Positions 5,859 to 40,800 of a stretch of 64,000 bases of DNA are shown here, piece after piece (positions within the stretch are counted from its first letter, which is position 1; each line of letters begins with the position of its first letter). Origin of the DNA: an uncultured Gammaproteobacteria bacterium (lineage in GTDB: Bacteria > Patescibacteriota > Microgenomatia > UBA8517 > JACQJR01). Below the pieces are notes generated by a model. It was not told where the DNA came from, did no database searches, and worked only from the letters and a program-made list of their open reading frames with translations. The DNA lies in the NCBI GenBank assembly GCA_964442455.1, contig CAYTZB010000005.1, positions 5,152 to 69,151 on the forward strand, read 5' to 3'. The position numbers were made by a program, and so were the translations under genes.

Positions 5859-6834
5859 TAATTAATTGGAGCGTCTTCTCAACAAGAGCTTTTTGGGAAT
5901 TCCATAAGAGATTGTCTATAGGTTCAACAAGTATTTCTCTAAAACCCCCTTTATTAACAACAATAGGAATGCACCCTGCTGCCATACTTTCCACAACTGT
6001 AATCCCGAAATGCTCAACCTTTTCTGGCTCTTTTTCCTCATCAACACCAAATCCTGATGCTGACCAAAAAATTTTTGCTCTTGCGTAAAGCGATTTCAAA
6101 TGATTGAAATCTAGGCTTTCAATAATCTCTATTGGGTAACCTCTGGCTTCAAACCTCAAACTTTTAGCAAATTCTTCTCCTCCAATATCGCTTCCTCCTA
6201 CAAGAATAAGCTTCCATCCTTGCAAACCCCCATCAACCATTGTTTTAAATACCGACACTAACACATCTTGCCGTTTTGCTTGAAGGAGCTGGGAAAATCT
6301 TCCAACAGAAAGAATAACATCAGCTTTAGTTTTATGACCCGCCTTGCCGTCGGGCAGGTTTATATCATCGAACTGACCAACATCAACTGGTGGATATATA
6401 ACAACACTATCTACCCCATATTCTTTATCAATAAATTTCTTTGTAAACTTTGAATTACATACAACTTCATAAATTCTTCTTAACTTCAATCGATTAAAAA
6501 GTGATTTTCCTCTCACATTATGAAATGGAACTTGAAAGTGCAGAATATTTTTCTTGGCATATAAGCGTGGAATACTTCCATCTGATAACCAAAAACACAA
6601 ATCATATTCTCTTCCCTTATGAATGCTAGAGACAACTCTCACGCCAGATAAATCTAGCCCCAATCTATCTTCCAGTTTTTTTAATATTCCAGCATCATCC
6701 CATCCTACATCCACCTCCCACCCACTCTTTTTCAAAACGTGAGCAACTGTCATCACATACCGTTCCCCACCACCAAGAGTATCCAAATATGGATTGTAAA
6801 TTGCAGCCCTCATAGCCTTCTTTGCATTTCCCAC
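5755..6834 (-). CDS. Glycosyltransferase family 1 (GT4-type, GT-B fold)
   Basis: 359 aa. C-terminal 'EHFGITVVESMAAGCIPIV' is the classic GT1 E-x7-E region. Confidence 0.75.
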   Translation of the reverse strand: MGNAKKAMRAAIYNPYLDTLGGGERYVMTVAHVLKKSGWEVDVGWDDAGILKKLEDRLGLDLSGVRVVSSIHKGREYDLCFWLSDGSIPRLYAKKNILHFQVPFHNVRGKSLFNRLKLRRIYEVVCNSKFTKKFIDKEYGVDSVVIYPPVDVGQFDDINLPDGKAGHKTKADVILSVGRFSQLLQAKRQDVLVSVFKTMVDGGLQGWKLILVGGSDIGGEEFAKSLRFEARGYPIEIIESLDFNHLKSLYARAKIFWSASGFGVDEEKEPEKVEHFGITVVESMAAGCIPIVVNKGGFREILVEPIDNLLWNSQKALVEKTLQLINDEKRRKILSHIVQQISKQFSQDRFEYEISKITA

Positions 6835-7748
6835 AACTTAGCATACGTTATAAATCTGCTCCATCCTTGATAAATTGAAAAGACAACACCAGGTACTCCA
6901 TCCAAAAATCCTAGTTTTAAAACTAACCGATCAAAAATTTCGCCAATGACCGGACGGAAAAATCTCCACCATGTCATTTTCGGATGACCACTCTCAAGTA
7001 AAAGCCTTGCTTCAATTTCCGACCAGTTGTTCGTTTTCTTAACCATATCTGATAAATTATCTTCTTTTAAATGAATGAAAGGATTCTTAAGATATCCAAT
7101 TTCCCCGTTGATTTTTGGTTGTTCGTGTAGTTCACCTTCCCATTTAATTAGTGCGTCCTTTCTCATAAGTCGTATAACATAATCCGGCCACCAGCCTCCA
7201 TGGTGCAATTCTTTCCCAAAAACAAAATTTCGTCTTGGAATAGCATAAGCTACTATACTAGAGTCGGCGGGTGACACGGGTGGAAGGCCTGCCTGCGCAG
7301 GCAGGGGTCCCGATCCCACTTCGCTCTTCGAGCTTCGAGGGACAAGCACGCTGGTACTGGCGGGCCTGCCAGCCGAAGCTTTAGCGTAGGCGGGAGGGAG
7401 AACCCGGGGCAGGACCCGCCGACCACCCGGGGTAGGACCCCGAGCAATCATTTCCATAATTTCCTCTCTTAACTCTGGAGAAACTCGCTCGTCAGGGTCT
7501 ATATAAAAAAGCCATTCACCTTTTGCTACCTCTTTTCCTTGATTCCTCCAGGTATCAAAACTCCCCGGTTTTTGTCTTATCACACGAGCTTTATACTTCT
7601 TCCCAATCTCAAGTGTTTTATCGGTTGAGCCGCCATCCAACAGAATAATTTCTCCTATCCCTTCCACCAGATGGCGGACAGATTCTAAACATTCAGGTAA
7701 TTTTTCAGCAGCATTTTTTGTAAGAACGACAATTGATATCTGTATCAT
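6810..7748 (-). CDS. GT2-family glycosyltransferase carrying an in-frame GC-rich palindromic insertion
   Basis: N-terminus 'ISIVVLTKNAAEKLPECLESV...ILLDGGSTDKT' and 'DPDE' are the GT2 DxD region. A roughly 57-aa Pro/Ser/Arg/Gly-rich segment (RGPTPGGRRV...PVSPADSS) interrupts the conserved core. Confidence 0.75.
   Translation of the reverse strand: MIQISIVVLTKNAAEKLPECLESVRHLVEGIGEIILLDGGSTDKTLEIGKKYKARVIRQKPGSFDTWRNQGKEVAKGEWLFYIDPDERVSPELREEIMEMIARGPTPGGRRVLPRVLPPAYAKASAGRPASTSVLVPRSSKSEVGSGPLPAQAGLPPVSPADSSIVAYAIPRRNFVFGKELHHGGWWPDYVIRLMRKDALIKWEGELHEQPKINGEIGYLKNPFIHLKEDNLSDMVKKTNNWSEIEARLLLESGHPKMTWWRFFRPVIGEIFDRLVLKLGFLDGVPGVVFSIYQGWSRFITYAKLWEMQRRL
7263..7433. repeat. GC-rich palindromic insertion element (171 bp, divisible by 3) with 10-bp perfect terminal inverted repeats GTCGGCGGGT...ACCCGCCGAC, inserted in-frame in the GT2 gene
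   Basis: The segment is sharply GC-rich within an AT-rich gene. It contains nested palindromes (CCTGCCTGCGCAGGCAGG; CACGGGTGG/CCACCCGG) and a direct repeat CTTCGAG x2. Its termini match the element at 15888-16002. Confidence 0.55.
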
Positions 7749-8698
7749 GGATTAAAACTTCCTTTCCCAAAGTTACCAAAATAATAATCTAACACTCCTC
7801 GCCGCTGCCATGACCGCCCATTGAAAAGAAGACGCGCCGACTCACGAAGTAGCGCAAATCGAGAACGAAGTGGTGCAAAGCGGCTCCCAAAGAGAAGTCG
7901 GTTGCGAGTGATGTAATAATCATTCAACTCACTCCCAATCGCAGAACTTTGCGCAACTTTGTGCCAGAGATAAGCAGATGGAGCATATAAAGTTTTAAAA
8001 CCTGTCATTTTTGCCCTTTGACAAAAATCAGCGTCTTCCCAATATAAAAAATAAGACGGGTCAAGTAGCCCAATTTTTTTAAACACTTCTTTCTTGACGA
8101 ACATACACGCACCGGTCGCAAAATCAGTCTCTGTGGTACTATCGTATTGGCCTTTATCCACTTCATCCACCCCTCGATGGCTTGCCAAAACATTATCCCA
8201 GTTAATCGCTCCCCCCGCATACCATATAACCTTTCCCAACTCTCCCTTCTTATACCTATCTTTGTGGAACTCAAAACCTTTGTAAAAATAAATTTTAGGG
8301 GAAATTATGCCAGCATGCGGGTTATTCTCTGCTGTTTTAATCAATTGAACTATTAAATTCTTATCTGTAATCGTATCGTTATTAAGAAGTACCACGTAAT
8401 CGGCATAGTCTTTTAATGCCGCTTTTATGCCCATATTATTCCCTTCCGAAAACCCTAGGTTATTTTTGTTTTCAATTAATTGAAATTTCGTGGAAAATTT
8501 TGCAAGTGTACGTAAATTTTCAACCGACCCATCAGTTGAACCATTATCAACAACAATAGTTTTGAGTTCTGAGTTTTGCCGTGCGTCGCCAAAGGCTATG
8601 CCGGCGGCGCGAGTTCTGAGTTTTGCAATGCTATCCAAGCATTGCAACGTATCTTCTTTCCCATTCCAATTAAGAATAACAATTGATACTTTTTTCAT
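7745..8698 (-). CDS. GT2-family glycosyltransferase
   Basis: 317 aa. 'VSIVILNWNGKEDTLQCLDSI...IVVDNGSTDGS' is the GT2 motif. It contains a short GC-rich insert (RTRAAGIAFGDARQNSE). Confidence 0.75.
   Translation of the reverse strand: MKKVSIVILNWNGKEDTLQCLDSIAKLRTRAAGIAFGDARQNSELKTIVVDNGSTDGSVENLRTLAKFSTKFQLIENKNNLGFSEGNNMGIKAALKDYADYVVLLNNDTITDKNLIVQLIKTAENNPHAGIISPKIYFYKGFEFHKDRYKKGELGKVIWYAGGAINWDNVLASHRGVDEVDKGQYDSTTETDFATGACMFVKKEVFKKIGLLDPSYFLYWEDADFCQRAKMTGFKTLYAPSAYLWHKVAQSSAIGSELNDYYITRNRLLFGSRFAPLRSRFALLRESARLLFNGRSWQRRGVLDYYFGNFGKGSFNP
8564..8626. repeat. 31-bp GC-rich insert flanked by a perfect 16-bp direct repeat (GAGTTCTGAGTTTTGC) inside the GT2 CDS
   Basis: 8564-8579 and 8611-8626 are identical. 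Between them lies cgtgcgtcgccaaaggctatgccggcggcgc, with imperfect palindromic ends GCGTCGCC/GGCGGCGC. It sits between the conserved CLDSI and IVVDNGS motifs. Confidence 0.5.
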
Positions 8699-8797
8699 TT
8701 TGAGCCCTGCGAAAAAACAAGCTCCGCTTATTTTGAGCCCTGCGAAAAAACAAGCTCCGCTTATTTTGAGCCCTGCGAAAAAACAAGCTCCGCTTAT
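8699..8797. repeat. Perfect 33-bp tandem repeat x3 (TTTGAGCCCTGCGAAAAAACAAGCTCCGCTTAT), followed by a hairpin CCGCTTA-tcgggt-TAAGCGG
   Basis: Three identical copies at 8699-8731, 8732-8764 and 8765-8797. The array starts immediately 5' of the ATG of GT2 gene 7745..8698 and contains the stop codon of 8794..9687. Confidence 0.9.
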
Positions 8798-13069: not shown

Positions 13070-13200
13070 GTAGCATTATTTCGAGCGTCAGCGAAAAACA
13101 AGCTCTGCTTATTTCGAGCAAAGCGAGAAACAAGGTTCTGTGTAAAGCACAGGTTCTTATTTCGAGCTTACGAGAAACAAGGTTCTACGCGAAGCGTAGG
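13070..13200. repeat. Degenerate array of three copies of the same repeat family seen at 8699-8797 (TATTTCGAGC-N-GCGAAAAACAAGCTCTGCTTAT...)
   Basis: Copy 1 'tatttcgagcgtcagcgaaaaacaagctctgcttat' aligns to 'ttttgagccctgcgaaaaaacaagctccgcttat'. Copies 2-3 are more diverged and carry hairpins CTGTG-taaag-CACAG and CTACGC-gaa-GCGTAG. The array lies immediately 5' of the flippase ATG. Confidence 0.7.
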
Positions 13201-13203
13201 TTA

Positions 13204-14688: not shown

Positions 14689-16533
14689 CTACATTCTAGC
14701 ACGCGAAAGCCGTTTCCTCCACCATGGAAGAGTAATAAGTATTCCCCAAGAAACAAGAGAAATTAAATTTCCAGCAGTGCGGGGAAAAGTATTATAGAGT
14801 TTGGCGTAAATTTCGTGCTCGCCTTCTTTAACGGTTATGTGCATTCGGCCTAACTCGTCATCATCTCCGGTAATTTCTGTTTCTTCCCCATCAATAAAAA
14901 CTCGCCAATTTGGAAATTGAAAAATATTTATTCTTGCTTTAGCACTTTCGCTTTCAATGGCAATTTTAAATTTCGCCCAGTTTGTTCCTTCACTAGTATC
15001 TGAAATATCACCCTCACCGCTCGTTATTTCGGCCAATGTAGTTCTTGGTCCTTGAGGCGCAATTCTTGATGTTTTTGGGAGATAATCATAAATCCCAGCC
15101 GTTTGTTGAAGCTCCCACGCAGCATTTGCAAATTTCTCTTCATCAGTTAAAGGACCCATGCGATAAGGCTTGAAGTAGTCTTTGTTAAACAACATCACTG
15201 TAACCAAAAGTATGACAACTAAAACTAATGTCCACCTACGCTTTCCATTAAGAAGCGGAACGAGCGCACCTATAACAAATGAAAAAGAAAGGATTACAAT
15301 TGTTAAAAATCGCCAAGGAAACTGAACAATAGAAAGGAATGGTAAGGCAAGCCAAATGGGGGTTGAACGCACATGGGCCATAAAGGCGGTGGCGAAGCCG
15401 AAAGTTAGCATGTAGCTTATGGCCAGTAGCGAATTGGTAGAAATTTTTCCTTTTCTTGCTAATTTAACCAGTACTAACGAACCTATAACTAATGCCAAAA
15501 TCCAGTGTATATGCCCAATTTGGAATGACATTCCGTCATTCTCCCCCCATACCGATGGTCCATAACCCCAAAATCGAGAAAAAAACAATTGATTAATATC
15601 TGCAAAATGGGCAATGTATTCATAATATCCTTGTGTGAGTGTATCGACGTGTACCAATCTCTGCTCGAGTATCACCGGAATGCTAAAAAATGCTGCCAAC
15701 CCAAATGCCCAAATCCCTGAAATTAAAAGTTGGGGGATTCTACTCCACGCATACCCTCTATACAACCAAAGTAAACACCAAATAGCAAACACAGGCGTGA
15801 AGATAAGCACCATAACATTGTGCGACAATAAAAGCGCCGCCCAAGAGAGCGCTAAAATAACAATCCATCTTAAATTTAATAGTAAAAGCGACGGGTGACG
15901 CGAGCGGAGGGAGTCCCACCGAGCGCCCGCAACCCGCCCAGACTGCTCGACTGTTGGCGGGGAGGACGTCGGGTGGGACGAGCGAGCGGCAGGACCCGTC
16001 GCAATAACCTTTTCAGCAATCAACTTAAAACTTGCCCACAAAATTAGCGGAACCCAGGCCAGCGCCCACGCCTCATTCATTGCTCCCCGCACATACACGT
16101 CAACCGCGTGATATGGCGCCCACACATAAAATACACTCGATAGTACCCCGCCAAGCCTGCCCCAAAATTCGCGCGCTAAAATATACATCGTTACTGCGGA
16201 CAACACGAAACTCAAGAAAAAGGTGAGCTTCACCGTCGTAATAAAAGAAACGCCTGTGAGCCTTATCACCTGCCCTACCAAATAGGGAAGTGGCGGATAG
16301 TAGTTAAAGAGTGGAAACCCATACCCATAACCCATATCCGGTACCCAACGGCAGGGGATTTGTAAATCTCGGAAGCACTTCTCCATCTCAAGTTGGCGCA
16401 TCATCTGTAAGTCATCATGCATGTTGAAGTATCCTGATGTGAGTAACACGCGACCCGCAAGAAATCCTAAAAACACTACCAAGATAATGGGCCAAAAATT
16501 AGAGAGACTCGTAATCCTTCGCAAGAATTTCAT
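14689..16533 (-). CDS. GT-C-like membrane protein (PTPS-related/'HDD-loop' family). Paralog of 60082..61755. Carries an in-frame GC-rich insertion.
   Basis: 614 aa. 'YFNMHDDLQMMRQLEMEKCFRDLQIPCRWVPDMGYGYGFPLFNYYPPLPY' parallels 'FTAHDIWHQVARFYHY...FGYPLFFFSYPLPW' of 60082..61755. The insertion encodes TGPAARSSHPTSSPPTVEQSGRVAGARWDSLRSRHP. Confidence 0.55.
   Translation of the reverse strand: MKFLRRITSLSNFWPIILVVFLGFLAGRVLLTSGYFNMHDDLQMMRQLEMEKCFRDLQIPCRWVPDMGYGYGFPLFNYYPPLPYLVGQVIRLTGVSFITTVKLTFFLSFVLSAVTMYILAREFWGRLGGVLSSVFYVWAPYHAVDVYVRGAMNEAWALAWVPLILWASFKLIAEKVIATGPAARSSHPTSSPPTVEQSGRVAGARWDSLRSRHPSLLLLNLRWIVILALSWAALLLSHNVMVLIFTPVFAIWCLLWLYRGYAWSRIPQLLISGIWAFGLAAFFSIPVILEQRLVHVDTLTQGYYEYIAHFADINQLFFSRFWGYGPSVWGENDGMSFQIGHIHWILALVIGSLVLVKLARKGKISTNSLLAISYMLTFGFATAFMAHVRSTPIWLALPFLSIVQFPWRFLTIVILSFSFVIGALVPLLNGKRRWTLVLVVILLVTVMLFNKDYFKPYRMGPLTDEEKFANAAWELQQTAGIYDYLPKTSRIAPQGPRTTLAEITSGEGDISDTSEGTNWAKFKIAIESESAKARINIFQFPNWRVFIDGEETEITGDDDELGRMHITVKEGEHEIYAKLYNTFPRTAGNLISLVSWGILITLPWWRKRLSRARM
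15888..16002. repeat. GC-rich palindromic insertion element with 9-bp TIR GCGACGGGT...ACCCGTCGC. Same family as 7263-7433.
   Basis: Both elements share a left end '(C)GGGTGAC(R)CG' and a right end 'GCAGGACCCG(Y)CG'. The segment is GC-rich inside an AT-rich CDS and the reading frame is maintained. Confidence 0.5.
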
Positions 16534-20127: not shown

Positions 20128-20167
20128 TTGGTTACTGGGTTACTGGGTTACTGGGTTACTGGGTAAC
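20128..20167. repeat. 8-bp tandem repeat TGGGTTAC x5 (3 perfect and 2 variant copies)
   Basis: Sequence is ttggttac tgggttac tgggttac tgggttac tgggtaac. It encodes the last 8 codons and the stop of 20140..21744, and lies 1-40 nt upstream of the ATG of GT2 19363..20127. Confidence 0.85.
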
Positions 20168-21744
20168 CTATGTCTCCTCTCTACCGTTATTCCTCCGAAC
20201 TTCACCTCTTTTTCAACTTTACCAATATTTTCCTGCCTCGCCAACCATGCGTCTAGCCTCTCGGGATGAGGTGGATCAACCTCATAGAGGGTATAGAGAA
20301 GTGGCACGTGCTCCTCTTTCGGCACTATCCCATATATTGTTGTTCCCCGCCACAAAAACAAATAATCGTAGGCATATGGGATTACCGGCGGGACATAAGA
20401 GTCAACATTAAAAGGAGTATTACCAGTATCTTCGTAAACCCAGTTAACTGCTTGTTTTTGGTTACCAAAAGCAATAGTATTTTGGCCGTCTACCCCTGAA
20501 GTTATATAACTTTGGATAACTGGAACATTAGTCTGCAAAAAAAGGTATAAAAAAATACCTAAAATAATTTTGCCAAACAAGGTATTGACAATAGTCGTTA
20601 ACAGAACAGAAAACAACAAAATAAAAATTAAATAGTATCCTGTAAAGTAATAGTCATAAATATTACCGTAATTACCCTGGAAGAAAAGCATTCCGGCAAG
20701 TGGGGAGAGGAAAATAATAAGTAATGTAACAAATTTCTGATTTGCAAAAAAAATCTTTCTGTTTATAATCAAAACTCCAAGTGAAATAATTCCAAATATA
20801 AATCCGTAATTTTTATAACTCATAAAAAGCTTTGAATTAAAAACATCAAAGTAAAAAAACAACCTTTGTCTGGCTACTTCCCAAAATGAACCCTTAAAAT
20901 TACCATCTCCAATTAAAAATTTAGCAATTCCAGATCTTAATATTCCATCATGGCGCAGGTCAAAAATTATTTGCGGTAAGAATGGAATAACCAAAGCAAT
21001 AACAAATAAAATCCAAATTTTCAAATCTGGCAAATTTTTCTTTTGCCCGCTTCGCGAGGCGAGCCAGATTGCAAAAACTAAAACAGCAGGAAAATAAAAA
21101 ACTTCAGCTGCTGAACCAAATTGCATTGCAAATCCTAGCATAAGTCCAGTAATAACCCATCCCCACCGTTTGCCTTTTATAATTAAAAATAAAGAAAGTA
21201 CAAGCAACATGCTAATAAGAAGCATTGGTGTTGGATTTGATAGCCAACGTGAGGCATAAACCAACTGAAAAGAAAATGTAGAAATTATAGCAGCAACAAG
21301 CCCTGTTAATCTTCCCGATACCATTACTCCGAGGATATAAATAAGTAAACTTGCAACAACGGTGGTAAAAGACAAGAATACTGATGGCCAAACTGGATTT
21401 CCGTTCCCTAATAAATAAAAAGGGGCAATCAACCAATAGTACCAAGGGCCGCGAAAAATTCCTTCTATTCCAGTTGTCGGCCCGATAAGGAAAAATTTAC
21501 CCTTATGCCACAAATCCCAAATGACAAGCGCATCTCTTCCTTGGTCATAATAAAACCCAAGGAGATTATCAATTCTCCAAACTCTCACCAAAAAAGCACC
21601 TAGAAGAATTATTGACAAAATTAGATATATTCTCGAGTGAGTCAATATCTCAGCTCTCAAACCGCTCAGCCATCGTCTCGTTCTTGTTACACTGTTATCC
21701 TGAAAGGACAAGCTCTGCTTACGTAGGGGTATAAGATTAGCCAT
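20140..21744 (-). CDS. GT-C/ArnT-like membrane glycosyltransferase (paralog of the 1..983 gene)
   Basis: 534 aa. 'YYDQGRDALVIWDLWHKGKFFLIGPTTGIEGIFRGPWYYWLIAPFY' matches the 1..983 product. The N-terminal 35 aa is uncertain: a degenerate copy of the intergenic repeat (aaaggacaagctctgcttacg) overlaps 21700-21725. Confidence 0.55.
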   Translation of the reverse strand: MANLIPLRKQSLSFQDNSVTRTRRWLSGLRAEILTHSRIYLILSIILLGAFLVRVWRIDNLLGFYYDQGRDALVIWDLWHKGKFFLIGPTTGIEGIFRGPWYYWLIAPFYLLGNGNPVWPSVFLSFTTVVASLLIYILGVMVSGRLTGLVAAIISTFSFQLVYASRWLSNPTPMLLISMLLVLSLFLIIKGKRWGWVITGLMLGFAMQFGSAAEVFYFPAVLVFAIWLASRSGQKKNLPDLKIWILFVIALVIPFLPQIIFDLRHDGILRSGIAKFLIGDGNFKGSFWEVARQRLFFYFDVFNSKLFMSYKNYGFIFGIISLGVLIINRKIFFANQKFVTLLIIFLSPLAGMLFFQGNYGNIYDYYFTGYYLIFILLFSVLLTTIVNTLFGKIILGIFLYLFLQTNVPVIQSYITSGVDGQNTIAFGNQKQAVNWVYEDTGNTPFNVDSYVPPVIPYAYDYLFLWRGTTIYGIVPKEEHVPLLYTLYEVDPPHPERLDAWLARQENIGKVEKEVKFGGITVERRHRLPSNPVTQ

Positions 21745-23942
21745 TATGGTTTCCCGCTTGGATTATGTACAAGTCTGTATAATTTTACCCCTGCCACGTC
21801 CCACTCTTTGTCAATCTTAGACCAACCAAAAACCGTAATTTCTGCCTTGGGATTATGTGTCGGGTCACACTTTTCTTGAGGTAACTCACATACAACAAAT
21901 AATTGCTCAGCAACTGTTTCCTCATATTTTAGAGGGTCTATATCTCTTACTGGTTCTTTCCACCACTCAAGGAAATACTGATAAGCATCTTCATAATTTC
22001 GCTCGGCCAAGACAGCCAAATTAAATGTTTGGCCTTTTGCTTCCTGCACAATCTTTGCTGCCACCTCTCCCGTCCTCTGAAGTTGCCTTTGGGGAGGATT
22101 CTTGATTGGTGTCATGGAAAGGTTAAGTAGTATCAAAAACACTAAAGCAGCGAACAGTAAAAAGTTTGTAATTTGTAATTTGTAATTTGTAATTTCTTGG
22201 GCTAACATGCCCAACAAAAAAAATGGTATCACAAACATAAATCCAAAATAGTGGTCGTAGATATTTTGTTTTAAAAGTGCCATACCGCTTAAACCGAACC
22301 CCACCCAAACAAGGAGGAGGAAAGAGGGTGACTGGAAGAATGTTTGGCGCTGTTTGGCTACAATCCAAAATGTACCTATAAGGGTAACCACGGCAATGAA
22401 TCTTCCCCACAATTCGTTCATTGCACCAACCAAACGTGTCATCTCTTGCTGGAACAATGGCCACAGTTCTGGAATTGCATTCCAAGGACGAGCAGAAACA
22501 GTGGCTTGCCGCTCGGTAAAGAAAATACGCATTGCCTCAAAATTGCGCCAACCATGGCGGGCATCGAAGATAACGAGAGGAGACATGAGTAGCGCAAAAA
22601 GCGCTGAGGCGATGAGAGTATAGAGGATGAATTTTCCATTTATTTTCGAATTTCTAATTTTTTGAAATGTCAGAAGCCAGAATAGTCCAATCGTTGGAGC
22701 AAGAAGTAGACCAAGATAATGAGACTGTAACACAAACGCATACGACACACCTAAAACTAAAAGCCACTTCCACTCGTGGTGTTTCCATACACGCCACACT
22801 GAATAAATAGACAAAAGAGCAAAAAAGGGCATGATATTAGGATTCCAAGAGGAGCGAGAATAGGTAATCACAACTGGTGAAACTGCATACAAACTTGCGG
22901 CAACAACCGCCGCTACTTTTCCAAACCACTCCCTGCTAACCCACCAAACAAATCCGGTAGTAGCGACTCCGAGAGCAGCAACTTGCGCTACGGGGCCAAC
23001 TGGGGAAAGACGAAAAAGAAAAAGTGCCGGTGCAATCAGGTAATAATAAAGGGGTCCCAGATACATATTGCCAATAGAGGTACCCGGGCCGACTAAAATA
23101 GGGTCGAAGTCAACGAGGAGACGCCGCACCACAATCGCATCCCTTCCTTCGTCTCCCAGAAAAGTCATATACTCTGATAATCGATAAAATCGAAGAAACG
23201 CACCAACGATTAAAATTGTGAGTAAGGCAAAAAATTCAAGTTTCGGCAAGAATTTCCACCAAATTTTAAAAAGATCGATGTAAGACTGTATTATTACTTT
23301 TATATTAGCTCCCGTAGGTCTGCCAGCAAGACGTGGATAATGGTTAACTCCCACCTCAACAACGTTAAACCCAAATTTTTTAGCCTTTACTGCAAGTTCT
23401 GCATTAATCATTCCTCCCCGTTTCGACTCAAGATGTGGAATCTGCTCGAGCACTCTTTTTTTAACCATCTTAAAGCCGCAATCAACATCCCGAAGTTTCA
23501 GTCCAAAAAGGGTAAATAAGGATAAAGCCCACCCTTTTGCAAAAAGAAGTCTAAAAAATGGGTCTTGCCTTTTAATCCTGTATCCAATAATCAAATCGGC
23601 GGTATCTAATTTTTCTATAAATTTTGAACTTTCTGAAAAATCAAATTGCCCATCAGAATCGGTATACGCAATTACATCGTAGCGGGCGTTATAAAATCCT
23701 GACTTTAAAGCCTCACCATAACCTAAGTTTTCCTTATGATTAATAACTCTAATCCTATCATCCTGTTTACTTAGTTCTCGTGCTATCTCACCTGTTTTAT
23801 CGGTTGAGCCATCATTAATAATAATGACTTCCCACTGTGCCGCAACTTTTTTAAGGACACCGATTGAGCTTTTTACTGTACGTTCTAAATTTGCTTCTTC
23901 GTTATAAGCAGGGAAGAAGACAGAGAGCGCGCTGATTTTCAT
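21744..23942 (-). CDS. Bifunctional fusion: N-terminal GT2 (DPM1-like) plus C-terminal GT-C/ArnT-like membrane domain
   Basis: 732 aa. The N-terminus 'FFPAYNEEANL...IIINDGSTDKT...TDSDGQ' is GT2. From about residue 230 the protein is polytopic, with 'FLGDEGRDAIVVRRL...GPLYYYLIAP' resembling the other GT-C paralogs. Confidence 0.7.
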   Translation of the reverse strand: MKISALSVFFPAYNEEANLERTVKSSIGVLKKVAAQWEVIIINDGSTDKTGEIARELSKQDDRIRVINHKENLGYGEALKSGFYNARYDVIAYTDSDGQFDFSESSKFIEKLDTADLIIGYRIKRQDPFFRLLFAKGWALSLFTLFGLKLRDVDCGFKMVKKRVLEQIPHLESKRGGMINAELAVKAKKFGFNVVEVGVNHYPRLAGRPTGANIKVIIQSYIDLFKIWWKFLPKLEFFALLTILIVGAFLRFYRLSEYMTFLGDEGRDAIVVRRLLVDFDPILVGPGTSIGNMYLGPLYYYLIAPALFLFRLSPVGPVAQVAALGVATTGFVWWVSREWFGKVAAVVAASLYAVSPVVITYSRSSWNPNIMPFFALLSIYSVWRVWKHHEWKWLLVLGVSYAFVLQSHYLGLLLAPTIGLFWLLTFQKIRNSKINGKFILYTLIASALFALLMSPLVIFDARHGWRNFEAMRIFFTERQATVSARPWNAIPELWPLFQQEMTRLVGAMNELWGRFIAVVTLIGTFWIVAKQRQTFFQSPSFLLLVWVGFGLSGMALLKQNIYDHYFGFMFVIPFFLLGMLAQEITNYKLQITNFLLFAALVFLILLNLSMTPIKNPPQRQLQRTGEVAAKIVQEAKGQTFNLAVLAERNYEDAYQYFLEWWKEPVRDIDPLKYEETVAEQLFVVCELPQEKCDPTHNPKAEITVFGWSKIDKEWDVAGVKLYRLVHNPSGKP
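22165..22192. repeat. Heptanucleotide tandem repeat TTTGTAA x4 inside the CDS of 21744..23942
   Basis: Four perfect copies. On the coding strand this reads (AAATTAC)n and encodes ...EITNYKLQITN.... The unit length is not a multiple of 3. Confidence 0.85.
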
Positions 23943-31395: not shown

Positions 31396-31423
31396 AAATT
31401 GAAAATTGAAAATTGAAAATTGA
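31396..31423. repeat. Heptanucleotide tandem repeat AAATTGA x4 in the 5'UTR/RBS region of 31148..31393
   Basis: Four perfect copies, immediately adjacent to the start codon and downstream of the stop of the CAP-domain gene. Confidence 0.85.
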
Positions 31424-31431
31424 AAATTTAA

Positions 31432-32458: not shown

Positions 32459-32533
32459 GAAAACTCAAGATACATACTGTATACTCATCTTACTTGAGTT
32501 TTCAACTTTTAAGCCTGCCTGCCGGCAGGCAGG
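32459..32533. promoter_or_regulatory. Divergent intergenic region holding a long imperfect inverted repeat (GAAAACTCAAG...CTTGAGTTTTC, 32459-32503) and a perfect 20-bp GC palindrome CCTGCCTGCCGGCAGGCAGG (32514-32533)
   Basis: The 11-bp arms are read directly from the sequence. The GC palindrome is nearly identical to CCTGCCTGCGCAGGCAGG inside the 7263-7433 element. Confidence 0.5.
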
Positions 32534-32566: not shown

Positions 32567-34816
32567 ATGCAAATTAAGGTTAAACAGGTATATAATAACG
32601 CCATGAAGCAAAATACCCTCTTTGAGATTAAAACACCCCGCGCAGGGAAAGAAACACCCGAGCAAGCTGCGACGGTATTTTCCGCACTCGCTTCCCAGCG
32701 GCCAACGCTCCTTTCACGGCTCACTGGAAGGCTAAAACCGTTCTTTTTTGAAATCGCAGGGTTTGACCAATCCATCCACTTTTACGCCAGCGTTCCCCAA
32801 GAAGTCGGCTCGTATTTTACTTCGCAACTTACCGCACAATATCCCCAAGCGCAAATTATCCCCGCTACCGACTACCTTACCTCTTTCCCACAAAATGAGA
32901 ACGAGGTAGCTCAACTGGCTCTTGCCAATTATTCTTATTATCCGCTGAAGGCCTGGCGAGATGTAGGCGAGGATACCGACCCGCTCTCCCCGGTGTTGGG
33001 TGTACTGGCAAACCTTAACGCACAACAACGTGCGTTGGTACAGCTAGTAGTGGTACCTGCGTCTGCCTCATGGCAGGAGAGAGGACGGGCATTCTTAACC
33101 ACTGGAATACAAACTCCTGAAGGAGGAACACGAACTCACCCCAAAGCCGCACTTGTTGAGCGCAAATTAGGAGCGAGCCAAGCGTTTGTAGTAGGAATAC
33201 GACTGCTTGTGCACGGAGAAACAAAAGCCGATGCCCAGGCTCTTCTGGGAAACCTGACTGGCTCGTTTGGTGCTTTTTCCCTAGGTGAGGGAAATGCGTT
33301 GGTGGTAAGTAATCCCTTCTTCTTTCGCAAGAAGCAGCTTGAGGGGTCAATAATAGCTCGTCTACCCAAACCCCTTCCTCAGGGAAATATCCTGACCGTT
33401 GACGAGCTTGCAACACTTTGGCATCTTCCGACAGAACCGCTGTCTAGAATTCCCACTATATCCTGGGGAGGAAAGCTCATGAGCGAGCCACCGGAAAATT
33501 TGCCCATTGGAACCTCCCAAGAGAAAGATGAAATTAACTTTTTTGCAAGAGCGGATTTTAAGGGAAAACCAACAGTATTTGGAGTGAAACGAGTGGATAG
33601 ACGCCGCCATATGTATCTGATTGGAAAAACAGGCACCGGTAAGTCGACCCTCATTGCCAATATGGCAATAAACGATATGCGAAATCGAGAGGGAGTAGCG
33701 GTAATTGACCCCCATGGGGATTTATCCGATATTTTGCTTGATTACGTACCTTCATTCCGCATTAACGACATTGTTTATTTAGACGCTGCGGACCGTAACT
33801 ACCCGTTTCACCTAAACTTGTTTGAGGGAGCAGAAAGTGGGCAACATGACTTAATTGCCTCGGGTATTGTGGCAATTTTCTACAAACTCTACCATTATTC
33901 GTGGGGACCTCGACTTGAGTATGTATTCAGAAATGCTATCTTAACGCTGCTTGAACAACCCGGCTCAACGCTTGTTGATATACCACGCCTCTTAACCGAC
34001 CGCGGTTTTCGGGAGAAGATTGTCTCACAAAGTAAAGACCGGATACTTGTCAACTTTTGGAAAAAAGAGTTTGAGGGAATGGGTGAAAGACTGCAAGCCG
34101 AGACAATCTCCCCAATTCTCAATAAAGTTGGACAATTTGTCTCTTCTCCGCTCATTCGCAATATTATAGGGCATCCGCGCTCAACAATTAACTTAGGAAA
34201 AATTATGAATGAAGGGAAAATTTTAGTCCTCAATTTGTCACAGGGAAAATTGGGAGAAGACAACTCATCACTTTTGGGAGCAATGGTCGTTACCAAACTT
34301 CAGCTTGCTGCCATGGAGCGAGTGAATGTTCCGGAGAGCGAGCGGCGGGACTTTTTCTTGTATGTTGATGAGTTTCAAAATTTTGCCACCACCTCATTTA
34401 TCAAGATTCTCTCTGAAGCACGAAAATATCGGCTGTCTTTAGTCCTTGCCAATCAATATATTGCACAAGTCCCTGAAGATGTCCAAAAGGCAATCTTAGG
34501 CAATGTTGGTAGCTTGGTCTCGTTCGTGGTGAGTGCGCAGGACGCGCACGTTTTGGCGCAAGAATTCGGCGACGTGTATAAAGAAGAGGACTTAGTCGCG
34601 CTTGATAATTGGCAAGTCGTTGTAAAAATGGCAATTGAGGGGAAAACTTCCCGTCCCTTCGTAGCCACCACTCTGCCACTGCCTCGTTCACGCAACAAAA
34701 ACCGTGCAAAAATCATTAACGTATCGCGGGAACGCTATGCAAAACCGCTCACTGCTCACACCTCACAAGCTCATGCGGCTGAGGAAGTAGTTCTCTACAA
34801 AGCACAGAATCGCTAA
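32567..34816 (+). CDS. VirD4/TraD/TrwB-like P-loop ATPase (FtsK-HerA superfamily, T4SS DNA-binding-domain type) with no N-terminal TM anchor
   Basis: 749 aa. The Walker A is 'YLIGKTGTGKSTLIANMA' and the Walker B is 'FFLYVDEFQNF', followed by a C-terminal 'LVLANQYIAQVP'. The roughly 330-aa N-terminal region is soluble and novel. The true start is possibly MKQNTLFEI at 32603. Confidence 0.6.
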   Translation: MQIKVKQVYNNAMKQNTLFEIKTPRAGKETPEQAATVFSALASQRPTLLSRLTGRLKPFFFEIAGFDQSIHFYASVPQEVGSYFTSQLTAQYPQAQIIPATDYLTSFPQNENEVAQLALANYSYYPLKAWRDVGEDTDPLSPVLGVLANLNAQQRALVQLVVVPASASWQERGRAFLTTGIQTPEGGTRTHPKAALVERKLGASQAFVVGIRLLVHGETKADAQALLGNLTGSFGAFSLGEGNALVVSNPFFFRKKQLEGSIIARLPKPLPQGNILTVDELATLWHLPTEPLSRIPTISWGGKLMSEPPENLPIGTSQEKDEINFFARADFKGKPTVFGVKRVDRRRHMYLIGKTGTGKSTLIANMAINDMRNREGVAVIDPHGDLSDILLDYVPSFRINDIVYLDAADRNYPFHLNLFEGAESGQHDLIASGIVAIFYKLYHYSWGPRLEYVFRNAILTLLEQPGSTLVDIPRLLTDRGFREKIVSQSKDRILVNFWKKEFEGMGERLQAETISPILNKVGQFVSSPLIRNIIGHPRSTINLGKIMNEGKILVLNLSQGKLGEDNSSLLGAMVVTKLQLAAMERVNVPESERRDFFLYVDEFQNFATTSFIKILSEARKYRLSLVLANQYIAQVPEDVQKAILGNVGSLVSFVVSAQDAHVLAQEFGDVYKEEDLVALDNWQVVVKMAIEGKTSRPFVATTLPLPRSRNKNRAKIINVSRERYAKPLTAHTSQAHAAEEVVLYKAQNR

Positions 34817-37800
34817 TTATTCGCGGGGACGACGGGGCCAAAAAACCAAAGCACCAATAACTACTATAAGAATTACACCGAGGGCGAGTAAACGATTACC
34901 AGAAAGCCGTTCAAGTAATCCGCCCTGTTCTTCCCCAACAGGAGTTGGTGCCGCCGAAGGTGTCGGAGTTGCTTCTCCTCCCAAAATCTCACCCTCGCTT
35001 GGTTCTTCTTTCGGTAAAATCTTTACCTCTCCAACACCACCAGCAACTGCCCCAGTAGTCGTTGCGGCCGACGCCAGCACTGCTCCGGCGGTAACCTGTG
35101 CCTCTTGATCAGCAACTATGCCTGAGCCATTTCCTGCATGGTCAACTGCCCGCAGAGCGTAAAAGTATGTCTTTCCACTCTCAAGGCCAAAATTATCCCA
35201 TGACATTTGCTGGTCAGGTGCTCCTCCTACCTCTCCCACTTTAGTTCCCCCATCAGCTGTAAACTCCGGTTTATCCGAGCGGTAAATAAACACTCTGCTG
35301 AAATCAGAATCGCCCGGGTTTTTCCAGAAAAGACGGTAGCTTGAGTCAGAAGGTCTTTCCTTCCTGTACTCTTGAACTCCTGATGGTCCTGAGTGGTCAA
35401 AATTTGTATTGGTCTCGTCAGCAGAAGTATCCGCTCCGCCAGTCACCTCAACTCGAAAGATATATTTCCCTTGACCGTCATAGAAATCAGCGCCTGTTAC
35501 CAAAACTTTATTGGTTGCGCCAGTTGTTGAGGAGTTAACCAAACTTCTAAATGTTCCACCATCCTTCTTGACGAAGAAGTTGGCTGTTACAGAATCGCCC
35601 TCTATGTCAAGCGCAGTATAGGAGATGTAGAAAGTATCTGTATTGGTGTAGGAAGGCAAGTCGAGTATATCAACGGTCACTGCCGCTTTGGCTGGCGAAA
35701 CCTGTGCAACAAATATGAAGAGCAACAGTACAACTACGCTACCCAAAAACTTTTTCCAAAGACCACTCTTTTTTGCTCTTCCTTTTCTTCTTGGTGCAAG
35801 TGCCAGGCCGAGGCGTCTCAAACCAAATCCTGCTCCCAAGAGGAAGCCAACATATACAAGCCAGACAGTATTAGCACCGGCTGCCGGAAGTTCTGTTACT
35901 GCAGCAAGCACTTGTGGCTGGTGAATATCGTATGAGATGAAGACACCCTTTCCTATCGGGACCGATGAACGGACAATATTACTTTGGAATGTGTCACTTC
36001 CCGTACCCTGGGCAAAGGCAAGGTTTGTGTGGGTACCGGCATGAATATCACTTGCAATAACCGCCTTATAGGTAACAGTCAAGGATGCAGTGCCAGCAAT
36101 ATCTCCAAGATTATTCCAGGTTAAGATGTTGCCTGAGACTGAGTCGGGGTCAGCAGGCGTTCCTGTCAAAGGAATAAATGTAAATCCGCTAGGCAAGACA
36201 TCAACTAATCTGACATCATGCAGTGTTCCACCACCGGTATTGGTAATGACCAATGTATATGTGACCACATCCGAACCAGAAGCACTGGAGGTATGGTCAT
36301 TTGTCTTGGTAAGCGAAATGCCAGGAAGTAATTTTTGGTTGGTAAAGGTACAAGTGACACCATCTGTGGTCAAGTTCACAACAATCTCATTGGTAGTACC
36401 GCTTGTCTCGTCCGAACAACTCCAGGAAACTAAGCCAAATTCTTCTTGTAGGTCTTCTGAAATTGTATAGCTTTCGGTTGGTAGGGTGCGGGTTTGGCCT
36501 GTCGCAATATTCTGCTCAACACCTGCTATATCCCATGTCCAGTTAGTTGCGCCAATTATGTCTTCTTCATCATTCAAATCGCCGTCTCCATTTGCATCCA
36601 CGTTCTTGAGAACAGTCAAATCTCCTGTATCCCGCGCATTACAGAGAGTAATCTCGGCACTCTGGTCTTCTTCTACTGTTATGCTTGCTGGGAGTTCTGC
36701 ATTTTCTGGATCCTCACAAGTTCCTTCTCCCTCAAACCAACCAACGAAGTGGTAACCAAGAACATTATTTTCTGAAACATCGTATGTTCCTGTATCAAGG
36801 GGACCAGCACTTTCTCCCATTTCTCTTTCCGGTGTTTCCTCATCAATTCCCCAACGGAAGCCCAGTTCATTTGCTACATCATTATCGCCCTCAAAGCTAC
36901 CGTCACCGTTGGTATCTACTTGTTTATTGACTACGATTTCTCCAATATCACGGGTGTTTGTAATCGTGCAGGTTACATCCTCACCCTCATCAAGGATAAC
37001 TGTCCCACCAAGCACTTCTGGGCATTTCTCGTCTCCGGTAATTGATGTAAAGCTGTAACCTTCTAGCCCGTCCTCGTCAATTGCGATTGGAGTATTCGCA
37101 TCAACCTCGGTTGCAAAACCAGATAATACTCCTATGTCATCAACCAGGAGACCGAAATCGTCTGGGTCTGCATTCCCGCCAATAACTTCTTTAATAAGAG
37201 TAATTGTTGGAATAATATCATCGTTGGTTATGGTACAAGAGATATTTTCTCCTTCATCCAAGGTAACTGTTCCACCAAGAGTATTTGGACACTTAGCATC
37301 CCCTGTAATAGATACAAAGTTGTAGCCGTCAAGAACAGTCTCATTGATTGTGTGAGGTTGATTGGCAGAAACTTGGGTTGTGGAACCCGATAAGACAACG
37401 TTCCCATCTATTGTTGGGTCAAAATCGTTAGGCTGCGCATTACCACCGTTATTATTTACAACAACCTTAGTAAGTGTAATGGTTGGACCAACATCGTTGT
37501 TTGTGATAGTACACGTAATACTTTCTCCTTCATCAAGAGTTACAGTTCCGCCAAGAATTTCTGGGCATTTTGCATCTCCTGAAATCGAAACGAAGGAATA
37601 ACCTGTTAGTCCAACTTCGTTAATTACTATTGGGGTATTAGCGGAAACCGTGGTTGTAGCTCCGGACAAGACCGCTGAACCACCAACTGAAATTCCAAAA
37701 TCGTCTGAACCTGCATTACCTCCATTATCATTGATTACTTCCTTAATTAAGGTTATGGATGGAGCTATATCATCGTTGGTTATAGTACAAGTGACGCTTT

Positions 37801-40800
37801 CTCCTTCATCCAAAGTTACTGTTCCTCCCAACTGAGTGGGACATCCTTCCCCTGCTATAGAAACGAATTCGTAACCGGTTAAACCAGCTTCGTTGATTGC
37901 AACTGAAGTGTTGGCGTCAACTTCTATTGTTTGACCAGAGGTTACAGGAACGCCTCCTATTGTAAGTCCAAAATTGTTTACGCCGGCATTTCCACCATTA
38001 TCGTTGATTACGTTCTTGATAAGAGTAACTGTTGGACCAACATCATTGTTTGTGATAGTACAAGTTTTGGTCTGCCCAAAAGCAATCGTGCCTGAACAAT
38101 CCTGGGATAAGCTCTTGGTATAGCCTGAAACTGAATCCTCATCAACGCTGTAAGACCCGGCGTCCAGCGTGACTGTAGTTCCATTTTCATCACCTTGGAA
38201 CGAAGAGTCGCTTACATTGGTTCCGGTAACATTTATATTAAAGTCACTCGCAACGTTATCTCCGCCGTTGTTATTAATTACGTGTTTAATAACAATTAAT
38301 TGTGCGGATACCTGTTTGTTTGTTACGTAAACATTGAAAGTTCCACCGCTTGAGACTGTTACAACCCCTCCATCGCTTATTGAAACTAGCTGATAACCAG
38401 TTGGTGCTGTAGCTTCCGTTATAGTGTATGTACCGGGTCCCAAATCAGGGTAAGTTGCATCTGTTCCTTCTGCAATAGCCTTTGGAGTGCCTCCGTTAAG
38501 CAACGAAGTAAACTCTGTTGAATTTGAAACATCTGTAGTCCCATCTGTGCCAAGAACGTTTTTATGAACAATAATTTGAGCGTTTTGGAAGTTTACGAAA
38601 GTGAAAACGTAGTTGCTGCCGCTTGTTGCTTGACCAAAACTGTGGGTTGTATCGCCAAGATTTGTCCAGCCTCCCGGGGTCTCTTCTGAAACTCCGTATG
38701 TGTGCCCCGGGCCCAAGTTTGTCCATGTATAACAACCATCTTCTTCGGTTGTTTGAGTATCGCTTACTTGACTATCAACCAAAAGTTTAACGGTCCAACC
38801 AGATTTATTTGTCTGGTCACCCGTAGTTCCTATATCTCCATCAGCGTCTATTACCTTACAAGCTTTAACGCTTACATTCTTAAAGTTTATAAAGTTTTGC
38901 TCTGTAACACTCCCACCTGGAGTAAGGGTGACGTTCTTGAAAACTGCAGTTAACGCCGTCCAACCAGCTTGTAGAACTTCTTTTACTTGATAATAGCCAG
39001 GAATAATACTCGAGAAACTATATGAACCGTCTGAAGCTGTATTTATGGTTTGAGATAAGACACAGCCGGTAAAGTCTGAAGCACAACTCCAAAGCTCAAT
39101 CGCCCAGCCAATTAATCCTGTCTGGTCGCCGCTAGTCAATAGACTTCCATCTGTGTCCTCAAATTTAAATCCTGAAATAGAGCCTACATTTTGATAATTG
39201 ACAAACGTGATGATTAGATTTTGATTACTGGCAAGAGTTTGAGTTGTCCCATTACTGGCGTTTGTATCATTATCCGGGTTTATATTATTTAGGGTATAAC
39301 CTGCCGTCACTATTTCTGAAAATGTGTACGTGCCGGGGGCAAGGGTATAAACGGCATTAAGACCCTCGTGGAAATCTTTATTATCTCCGCCACCTCTTTG
39401 AACTACGAAATTTGTGCTATCCAAGACATCATTCCCATTTGGATCGCGGACGTCTTTAACAATGGTTACAATAGCGTTCTTTTGCTTGTTTGTACAAGTA
39501 ACAGTTATAGTTCCGTTGCTGGAAACGGTAACTTGAGCTCCGTCTCCGGGAGTTTGGTTTGCGTCCGGAGTACAAGAAACATAAGTGTAATTTGAGTCTT
39601 CTACTTCTGTAATCGAGTAGCTACCCGGATTAACAGGATAGCTAGCAGTCAGGGTTTCTGAGAAGCTTTGATTATTTGCCCCATTTAGTTGTGCTGTAAA
39701 GGCATGATTATCAGAAACATCCGAGCCATCCGGAGCACGAACATCTTTAACAACGTTAATGGTTGCTTTCTTTTGCTTGTTGACAACATTAACGGTTTGC
39801 TGCTCGCCAGGCCCAACAACAACCTGTGTACCACCAGCACCCGTGTCTTCGTCTGGTGTGATGCTTACCAAATCATAATCCGGATCAGGACTTTCAGTTA
39901 TTGCGTATGTTCCTGGGACAACCGTGAATACGCCGTTGTCACCCTCCCCAATTTGGTCTGACTGACTGCCAACATTGACTGTGAATTGATGTGTATCTGA
40001 AACCTCTCCGCCATCTGGATTAAGAACATCTTTAATTACTGTTATGGTCGCATTTTGCTGGCGGTTGACAACGAATACATCTGTAGTTTGTCCCGGAGTA
40101 ACCGTCACTTGGGCACCGCTTGTCCCCCCATCATTATCCGGAGTAATACTGAATAAGGCATAACCTGTTGGCGGGGTATCCTCTGTAATTGTGTGTGTAC
40201 CTGCGGTAATGTCAGTGTAAGTAAAAGTTTCCCCGTCGGTGAGGAATTGAGGATTGGCACTGTCTAGTCTGACCGTAAAGTTTTGAGAAGTATCGGTTAT
40301 CGCTTCACCATTTGGACCCTGAACATCTTTATGAACAATAATTGTTCCAGTGTTTAGGGCGTTATGAAAGGTACAAGTGGCGTTAGTTGGCGGTTTACCT
40401 GCGGCTACTGTGGCAGTAGCTGTCGAACCATTAAAGGTGCAACTTGTGCCAGTACCACTTGCAAACGTATAGCCTGCGGGGCCACTTTCGGTAACGGTGT
40501 AATTCCCATCAGGAGAAACATTGTTAATGGTCACAGAGTTTTGACCTGGAGGTATGGGGTAGACTGATTGCCCATTAATTGCCGGTGTAATGGTAAACGA
40601 CCACTGATCAGAAGTTGCGCTACCACTATCCACAATCTTGCTCAATGTAATCGAAGGTAACTGCAGTAATTGGTTGACTGGGATCGGAATATTTTCTTGA
40701 CCACCCTGGGCTGTTCTTATACTCATCGAAGAACCATTAAACTGACTTGCATCCAAACCCAGTCTGCCGCAGAAAAGCATGTAAACAGTATTATGGGAGG

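Follow-up and report, generated by a model that had tools for sequence, protein, structure and literature searches.

Rickettsia palindromic elements (RPE) are short palindromic repeats without an open reading frame (ORF) of their own, and to our knowledge no transposase is associated with them. GC-rich palindromic repeats in an AT-rich genome are also represented by the GC clusters of yeast mitochondria. Repetitive extragenic palindromes (REP) are 20-40 nt long and extragenic, the elements of the REP/RAYT type (RAYT, REP-associated tyrosine transposase) and those derived from IS200/IS605 insert beside a defined tetra- or pentanucleotide, and in IS608 and ISDra2 the active strand lies on the lagging-strand template. 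RPE have a length of about 150 bp, R. conorii has 44 copies, of which almost half are in-frame insertions within ORFs, each family encodes a conserved peptide, and the insertions are tolerated where protein conformation and function stay compatible (PMC10969869, which together with PMC1458961 summarises the work of Ogata et al. 2000, Science 290:347, and 2002, Genome Res 12:808). In R. bellii the number of copies reaches 526 (PMC1458961), protein-coding palindromes have been called "unique" but nonetheless "recurrent" in the title of one publication (Ogata et al. 2002, reference 64 of PMC10969869), and repetitive hairpin-forming elements have been described in sponge mitochondria (PMC2800124). 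A stretch of 64,000 nucleotides (contig CAYTZB010000005.1, positions 5,152 to 69,151; hereafter the window), with 41.8% GC and nearly all its genes on the minus strand, has been analysed in this work, and it contains two GC-rich repeats, el1 and el2, each located in frame within a gene. The analysis indicates that el1 and el2 probably belong to a family of non-autonomous, GC-rich DNA repeats with the form of imperfect hairpins, which are mobile now or were so recently in Microgenomates/Patescibacteria of the Candidate Phyla Radiation (CPR).

The first host gene (6810..7748, minus strand) encodes a family-2 glycosyltransferase (GT2) of 312 amino acids, as proposed in an initial annotation made from the sequence, and this assignment was confirmed by its ORF, by a match to PF00535 (E 1.3e-17), by its homologues and by an AlphaFold2 model. 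The gene is interrupted in frame, with the ORF running through the insert. A segment of about 70% GC had been noticed in this AT-rich gene at 7263-7433, and the base composition agreed with it (70.2% versus 38.1% for the remaining GT2 gene), but the limits of 171 bp and 57 codons had to be corrected to 7263-7445, that is, 183 nt and 61 codons, with both ends codon-aligned. The GC-rich block reaches 7445 because nucleotides 7424-7445 are a direct near-repeat of the adjacent el1 end (ACCCGGGGCAGGACCC / ACCCGGGGTAGGACCC). A perfect 10-bp terminal inverted repeat does exist, with the left arm GTCGGCGGGT at 7263..7272 and the right arm ACCCGCCGAC at 7414..7423; nevertheless, it does not bound the 171-bp segment as had been thought, because the right arm stops at 7423 and not at 7433.

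The el1 block is a composite of three parts. Its core (7263..7423, minus strand; 5'-GTCGGCGGGTCCTGCC...GTGTCACCCGCCGAC-3') is a diverged full-length copy of the repeat, whose termini are those of el2. Next to it lies a 22-nt remnant of a second copy (7424..7445, minus strand), in which terminus-like sequences are joined as a mini-hairpin (sense GCTCGGGGTCCT-ACCCC-GGGTG). The third part is the nested 18-bp palindrome CCTGCCTGCGCAGGCAGG (CCTGCCTGC/GCAGGCAGG; 7288..7305), which splits an otherwise recognisable 3' arm of el1 (GGGAC.CC^CTTCC...CACCCG); this palindrome is perfect, as announced in the initial annotation, but the other nested pair named there, CACGGGTGG/CCACCCGG, is imperfect, with 83% matching over 12 nt. 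The junction of the remnant with the host gene (ATGATT|GCTCGGGGTCCT) is also the junction of the full copy in the orthologue P0012/L047, the terminus GCTCGGGGTCCTG of the remnant is found again in the copies of L010, L011 and L013, and in its 5' 30 nt el1 is almost identical with the insert of the orthologue P0004/L048. The assignment of el1 to the family is made because of its termini and of these intermediate forms at the orthologous site. By itself the 10-bp inverted repeat is marginally unusual, its length being matched or exceeded in 47 of 2000 shuffles of the 200-nt region, and the significance of el1 comes from the family evidence and not from the inverted repeat on its own.

The second family member proposed at 15888-16002 is real, and it is a canonical one. 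This element, el2 (15888..16002, minus strand; 75% GC), reads 5'-GCGACGGGTCCTGCC...GTCACCCGTCGC-3', carries a terminal inverted repeat of 9 bp (GCGACGGGT/ACCCGTCGC) and shares both termini with el1 in the same orientation (CG[GA]CGGGTGAC... and ...GGCAGGACCCG). It is located in frame in a gene (14689..16533, minus strand; PF10131) for a 614-aa membrane protein of the PTPS_related/GT-C-like type. Nearly all of the 150 listed representatives match this protein in two stretches, approximately residues 1-176 and 221-611, and the insert of about 41 aa is absent from all seven aligned homologues. Beyond el1 and el2, no further copies were detected in the window by relaxed BLAST or by a covariance model with the filters off.

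The GT2 homologues (n=1508) are mostly 248-260 aa long. In the great majority of the 107 orthologues in which both flanking motifs were located, the linker between these motifs has 23-28 aa, compared with 82 aa in the window GT2. The closest orthologue (P0002) is insert-free and 83% identical outside the insert, so that the insertion of about 57 aa expected from the initial annotation stands as an insertion, although with a net length excess of 59 aa (312 versus 253). In the AlphaFold2 model, built on the orthologue alignment, the GT2 core shows a predicted local distance difference test (pLDDT) above 90 and residues 114-159, between helix 91-103 and strand 165-176, a value below 50; as these residues are flanked by confident core elements, the insert is predicted to be a disordered loop that links two secondary-structure elements of the core. 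An insert is also present at this position in some orthologues. However, in a neighbour-joining tree of the GT2 proteins, in which the insert was masked, sister taxa differ in state (P0001 filled and P0002 empty, P0004 filled and P0003 empty, P0012 filled and P0017 empty), and the filled lineages differ in element subtype, in junctions (offset by 1-4 codons) and in frame, a pattern that favours turnover at a site that is permissive or a hot spot over an ancestral linker. The inserts at this one site form a decay series, from 183 nt in the window composite through about 90-105 nt in full copies (L001, L003, L037, L047 and L049) to 55 nt (L050) and 30 nt (L055).

The element-free GT2 orthologues L052 (P0003), L053 (P0009), L054 (P0021) and L002 (P0002) contain a heptanucleotide tandem repeat at the same spot, in the part of the linker immediately upstream of the codons for 'A(Y/F)AIPR' (orthologous to window positions ~7255-7262 / 7446-7460). 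These arrays comprise 3.5-5 copies of lineage-specific units (AAATTCT, AATCAT[CA], ATCACYG and ACGCCAT) and give the protein a periodicity of 7 aa (IINHKSSIINH, ILNSKFQILNS, ITDHRLPITDH), which is likewise seen in several other orthologues. They could be a slippage or phase-variation hot spot. The interpretation of the arrays as stacked duplication footprints left by excision has been rejected, since the filled sites lack a 7-nt duplication.

The first copies outside the window were obtained from the DNA of the GT2 orthologues and from exact-pattern scans of two contig collections, genome_contigs and metagenome_contigs, which together gave twelve non-redundant el2-type copies. A covariance model (R1) built from these twelve copies gave el2 a score of 88.4 bits and recovered el1, the inserts of the GT2 orthologues L003, L047, L049 and L050, and new copies in L041, L011 and L015. 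With DNA scans and covariance model, about 20 non-redundant relatives were found in contigs of Microgenomates/Patescibacteria, from other genes, intergenic regions and other genomes, in agreement with the multicopy nature anticipated for the element. The scan of genome_contigs, with a pattern of 20 specified bases, produced 34 matches, 25 of them due to chance in high-GC genomes and 9 real; these 9 loci are of CPR type, 5 by record title and 4 in mislabelled metagenome-assembled genomes (MAGs). Another 8 loci came from metagenome_contigs. Intact copies have a length of about 85-130 nt and a GC content of about 70-75%, and the canonical copy reads 5'-(GCGAC/GCTCG)GGGTCCTG(C/T)C ... GGGAC.CCCTCCGC....G(C/T)CACCC(G/C)(TCGC)-3'.

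The host genes, checked with Pfam, belong to nine families: GT2, PTPS-like membrane protein, PMT-like protein, arginyl-tRNA synthetase (ArgRS), leucyl-tRNA synthetase (LeuRS), Fpg, RNase HII, ComEC and a MerR/HTH protein. GT2 is the host gene in nine lineages, the PTPS-like host is that of the window, and in the MerR+HTH_17 protein the copy is read antisense and occupies the linker between two DNA-binding domains. Intergenic DNA holds three or four copies: L011 has two, L015 has one upstream of an ABC ATPase, and L015b is a possible fourth. A search with a peptide profile of the translated element against a database of 5.8 billion proteins gave 69 candidates, none of them significant, probably because the query is short and of low complexity, and a scan of viral contigs with two element patterns gave nothing or one chance match in a contig of 65% GC.

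The records of L010, L011, L028 and L034 (CAZLZK01, CAYYLO01, CAYIKF01) are titled 'uncultured Gammaproteobacteria bacterium' and carry, together with the element, genes of CPR type such as a GT2 orthologue whose DNA is 75% identical to that of Candidatus Blackburnbacteria. Probably the 'Gammaproteobacteria' label of these MAGs is wrong, or the bins are mixed.

Copies located in different genes are more similar to each other than the host genes of the same lineages. One genome, the Microgenomates JACQJR01, has a copy in its Fpg gene and another in its PMT-like gene, with 97% identity between them. Between the ArgRS copy of MHBW01 (Blackburnbacteria) and the GT2 copy of another MAG there is a single difference in a core of about 100 nt, and both have an extra 5' remnant; the DNA identity of the GT2 genes is only 75% between these lineages. 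This contrast, 97-98% identity between copies in different genes versus about 75% between host orthologues, suggests that the repeats move by transposition.

The reading frames are not those expected for a protein module. In el1 the translation of CGGGTCCTGCC is ..RVLP.., in el2 it is ..GPA.., and this use of different frames argues against a conserved protein module. Across the copies, the 5' end is read ..GP.. in six and ..RVLP.. in el1 and L003a, the 3' half is read RDSLRSRHP or GGTPSAPATR, mixed frames occur within one copy, and one copy (L010) is read antisense; the predicted loop peptides include GPAARSSHPTSS and RDSLRSRHP. The repeat is best described as a DNA-level unit and not as a protein module. 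The host ORF is open in every coding copy found by DNA search. Stop-free frames were counted in 51 of 60 cases for the sense strand and in 35 of 60 for the antisense strand, and the estimated chance that a random insertion preserves the ORF is about 0.28 (1/3 for the frame x 0.85 for the absence of stops), so that preservation in nine independent host genes has an estimated chance of about 1e-5. The copies have therefore been filtered by selection for translatability, which would not be expected if they were removed from the RNA.

Both el1 and el2 fold as long imperfect hairpins, as expected for palindromic elements. The el1 fold reaches -100 kcal/mol, with z = -5.0 on the sense strand and -1.5 on the other strand, and the el2 hairpin has z values of -4.1 and -3.7 on its two strands. 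In the alignment of the twelve copies, 94.7% of the cells pair and 9 of the 30 pairs show compensatory changes, with the variants GGGGG/CCCCC, AAAGG/CCTTT and GGGAG/CTCCC in helix 2 and a change from A-U to G-C in helix 3. The number of double-change cells was 29, compared with 9.6 in shuffled alignments (29 was reached in 0 of 500 shuffles) and 0-5 in slid controls. According to our own count, G-U and A-C stem mismatches (5 versus 7) present no strand asymmetry, and therefore the constraint is not necessarily one on the sense RNA, a hairpin at the DNA level being just as compatible with the data. No Rfam family was matched at the gathering score, the best E-values being 0.4-8. This result, the low complexity and predicted disorder of the 61-aa insert and the constant preservation of the frame set the element apart from self-splicing introns, inteins and known structured RNAs.

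The copies have a marked orientation. They are in sense orientation in eight of the nine host genes (two-sided binomial p ~0.04), and both copies are co-oriented in all five two-copy contigs. Stop codons were rejected as the cause of the sense bias, since the difference in open frames between the antisense (35/60) and the sense (51/60) strand explains too little of an 8:1 ratio. GC skew is positive on the canonical strand of the element in 19 of 19 loci tested. In L010, L011 and L015 this rule holds even though most of the coding sequence is on the other strand, and in these loci even the opposite-strand genes have C>G on their own coding strand, a pattern that points to a link with replication or the chromosome strand rather than with transcription.

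In the model proposed for this family, copies land in both coding and non-coding DNA, and the survivors within genes are those that occupy tolerant loops, have an added length divisible by three and lack stop codons. Transcription and translation of the host gene would include such copies, which would give its protein a disordered loop rich in Pro, Ser, Arg and Gly. After insertion they can take in further nested palindromes, and they decay through internal deletion between the hairpin arms, with terminal remnants left behind, el1 being a composite of this kind. Movement might take place via a single-stranded DNA hairpin formed on a transiently single-stranded strand, with an enzyme acting in trans, according to a logic similar to that of IS200/IS605 or REP/RAYT. 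This mechanism is proposed because target-site duplications are lacking and the orientation on the G-rich strand is strict, and it is advanced as a tentative possibility. A more specific version, in which this would be the first strand-specific single-stranded DNA hairpin element of the CPR and would repeatedly re-enter one codon-level site of GT2, otherwise occupied by heptanucleotide repeats, by homing-like or target-guided insertion, is considered rather unlikely; if true, it would mean a previously unrecognised process of site-directed insertion or slippage in genomes reputed to be free of mobile elements.

Other explanations have been weighed against a mobile hairpin family. A classical miniature inverted-repeat transposable element (MITE), that is, a deletion derivative of an insertion sequence (IS) with a DDE transposase, which moves by cut-and-paste through its terminal inverted repeats and generates a target-site duplication, has much in common with el1 and el2: inverted repeats of 9-12 bp (perfect over 10 bp in el1, 9 bp in el2), small size, several copies and no ORF of its own. 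Prokaryotic MITEs such as Correia/NEMIS, ERIC, BOX, RUP and Nezha are also small and non-coding and are known to form occasional in-frame fusions with ORFs (PMC10969869). However, no direct repeats flank the roughly 15 junctions inspected, no parent IS with the same termini was seen among the approximately 36 window ORFs scanned or in the fetched loci, which represent parts of the genomes, and the CPR element pairs over its whole length, with covarying stems, and not at its ends alone. In addition, most copies lie in coding sequence and all of these preserve the ORF, and a strict strand bias is unexpected for double-strand cut-and-paste; a classical MITE is thus an unlikely explanation. Spread mainly by homologous recombination or gene conversion between orthologues after DNA uptake, with conversion among resident copies, would account for the many lineages that fill the same GT2 loop with different subtypes and for the el2-type copies at the GT2 site of the distant orthologues L001, L028, L037 and P0029, and CPR bacteria encode a competence machinery, of which ComEC is itself a host gene. 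Against this, nine unrelated host genes and several intergenic sites need some non-homologous insertion, and within GT2 the point of insertion shifts by 1-4 codons and the frame changes between lineages; this explanation on its own was given a low probability.

A hairpin selected in the messenger RNA, because of a translational pause at a domain boundary, stability or a protein- or RNA-binding site, or a sequence excised as a small intervening sequence, would be compatible with the covarying helices, with the invariant unpaired motifs GACGTCCTC and CTCCCTCCGC, with the sense orientation in eight of nine host genes and with the better fold of el1 on the sense strand (z -5.0 versus -1.5). Excision, however, would not demand that all coding copies be in frame and stop-free, and intergenic copies, an antisense copy, the similar numbers of G-U and A-C mismatches, the lack of an Rfam match and the free decay of the copies by internal deletion all speak against an RNA-level function, which is held to be very unlikely. 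The last alternative, a low-complexity GT2 linker, ancestral or lineage-specific, that evolved in place and whose inverted repeats arose by chance in GC-rich sequence, could be suggested by the several orthologues with Pro/Ser/Arg-rich inserts at the same place and by the modest improbability of the 10-bp inverted repeat (47/2000 shuffles). It is refuted because copies exist in ArgRS, LeuRS, Fpg, RNase HII, ComEC and intergenic DNA, where the same DNA appears in unrelated contexts and is read in different frames, and it also conflicts with the empty closest orthologue, with the interleaving of filled and empty states on the tree and with the difference in GC content between insert (70%) and host gene (38%), so that practically no credence is left to it.

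Several observations weigh against the interpretation of el1 and el2 as members of a mobile repeat family. The match of el1 to the covariance model (7262-7423, minus strand) is weak, with 23.8 bits and E 0.0085 under default filters and 15.5 bits and E 0.2 with the filters off. The number of copies is low, with 2 in the 64 kb of the window and 3 on the sampled parts of a 609-kb contig, and the exact-pattern scans gave only the 9 CPR-type loci of genome_contigs and the 8 of metagenome_contigs. No target-site duplication was found at about 15 junctions or in the comparison of filled and empty GT2 sites, nor do the junctions reveal a clear target motif; a TT ending of the left flank, seen in about 6 of 17 copies (el1/L047, el2, L010, L011a, L015a), is not decisive. 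No transposase or other mobilising enzyme was identified among the approximately 36 ORFs of the window scanned against Pfam, which are ordinary chromosomal genes. Part of the high similarity between copies could be due to gene conversion or horizontal transfer and not to transposition, and translation of the element with its host gene is suggested by ORF preservation only. Concerning the strand bias, strand and gene orientation can be separated in only three loci and are confounded in most. Moreover, a G/C disparity that extends along the entire chromosome is known from some Microgenomates (PMC7143001), so that GC skew may not be a leading-strand marker here.

In L011 (1432-2241), two co-oriented copies flank an ORF of 154 aa with only phage-integrase SAM-like N-terminal domains (PF02899). 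This ORF was rejected as a candidate Y1 transposase, as it has no catalytic domain.

The comparison with the described systems supports the reading as a selfish palindromic element similar to RPE that was put forward in the initial annotation, as an analogy and not as membership of a family. Both are short palindromic repeats (~100-150 bp) without their own ORF in small AT-rich host genomes, and both are found in frame in unrelated genes, including housekeeping genes, at positions compatible with the fold, and also in non-coding DNA. They differ in that the sequences appear to be unrelated and the host phylum is CPR/Microgenomates, as judged from the best homologues, and the CPR element has 70-75% GC in an AT-rich background, unlike the AT-rich Rickettsia repeats. 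Instead of one fixed peptide and frame, it is read in at least two sense frames and one antisense frame, and it has few copies per genome sampled as opposed to 44 in R. conorii and 526 in R. bellii. The strict strand bias, the reuse of one codon-level site by different subtypes and the nested mini-palindromes are further differences. With the REP/RAYT and IS200/IS605 systems the CPR element shares a GC-rich imperfect hairpin with covariation, a non-autonomous nature, the lack of target-site duplication and a strand-specific orientation, the meaning of the skew in Microgenomates being uncertain; however, no tetra- or pentanucleotide target is evident, and the sequence examined yielded neither a RAYT nor a TnpA gene. 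The GC clusters and hairpin elements of mitochondria are similar as GC-rich hairpins that invade very AT-rich small genomes, in some cases within coding sequence that is not destroyed, with proliferation of families and nested insertions, but they belong to an organelle and not to bacteria, are mostly shorter (30-60 nt) and have no sequence relationship with el1 and el2.

The full-text literature searched, whose coverage leaves out most subscription-journal papers, yielded no account of such elements in CPR, Patescibacteria or Microgenomates, and one complete Microgenomates genome has been reported without mobile-element-related genes (PMC7143001). The CPR family is a new sequence family with a known lifestyle, otherwise described essentially for Rickettsia, and as an independent family it would show that this kind of gene parasitism has originated repeatedly in small AT-rich genomes. 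It reaches essential genes (ArgRS, LeuRS and RNase HII), it may be a source of new surface loops in CPR proteins, and it would account for unusual inserts, rich in GC and low in complexity, that cause problems in CPR MAGs for gene calling, homology searches and structure prediction. The mechanism of mobilisation can be approached concretely through the strict strand bias and the repeated use of one GT2 site, and the states of presence, absence and decay could serve as strain markers in groundwater metagenomes.

The small palindrome nested in el1 has also been found at other places. It stands alone between two divergent genes of the window (32514..32533, CCTGCCTGC-CG-GCAGGCAGG; 0.02 occurrences expected by chance) and at L018 4265-4284, in the form CCTGCCTGC(0-2 nt)GCAGGCAGG. 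It is nested at a different position in the copy L015b (L015 6474-6607; palindrome at 6535-6551), and it constitutes the core of another palindromic family (GTCATYCC.GCGCAGGC.GG..), which is present in frame twice in the ArgRS gene of L013. The small palindrome seems to be an independent mobile module, and its presence at these four other places, including the core of a second family, indicates that several hairpin families colonise these genomes. The extra inserts in the L013 ArgRS, of a family different from that of el1 and el2, correspond to residues ~51-96 and ~650-681 of the ORF translation, have the ends GTCATCCCCGCGCAGGCGG.GAAC ... GGGAATGAC/GAAATGAC and encode the peptides 'VIPAQAEN..SHFRGNDK' and 'SSPRRRGTRN..'; a related unit adjoins an intergenic copy in L011.

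Other repeats were observed in the window. Perfect short-period arrays are located at 20130-20164 (GGTTACTG x4.4, at the junction of two glycosyltransferase genes), at 22165-22195 (TTTGTAA x4.4, within a GT2+PMT_2 fusion gene at 21744..23942) and at 31396-31428 (AAATTGA x4.7, just downstream of a CAP-domain gene), and these three arrays are possible contingency repeats in a glycosylation cluster. A perfect tandem repeat of 33 bp x3.1 (8697-8797) fills the spacer between two GT2 genes, its last unit providing the ATG of the gene 7745..8698, and a 47-bp x2 repeat (81% matching) lies between genes at 13108-13202. The same GT2 gene, 7745..8698, contains at ~8564-8623 (minus strand) a GC-rich insert of 33 nt (GCGCCGCCGGCATAGCCTTTGGCGACGCACGGC, peptide RAAGIAFGDARQ) flanked by a 13-nt direct repeat AAACTCAGAACTC; the insert is absent from the orthologues of L003 and L048, and the orthologue of L050 has a different short insert (LNPPAGRAG) at this place. 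It looks like a separate small insertion or duplication event with a duplicated target. Finally, a gene for a VirD4/TraG-like coupling protein (32567-34816) adjoins a giant ORF of 2385 aa (34817-41974), whose neighbourhood, according to Pfam, includes many secreted proteases (S8, M10, M73), LTD-domain proteins and a sortase.

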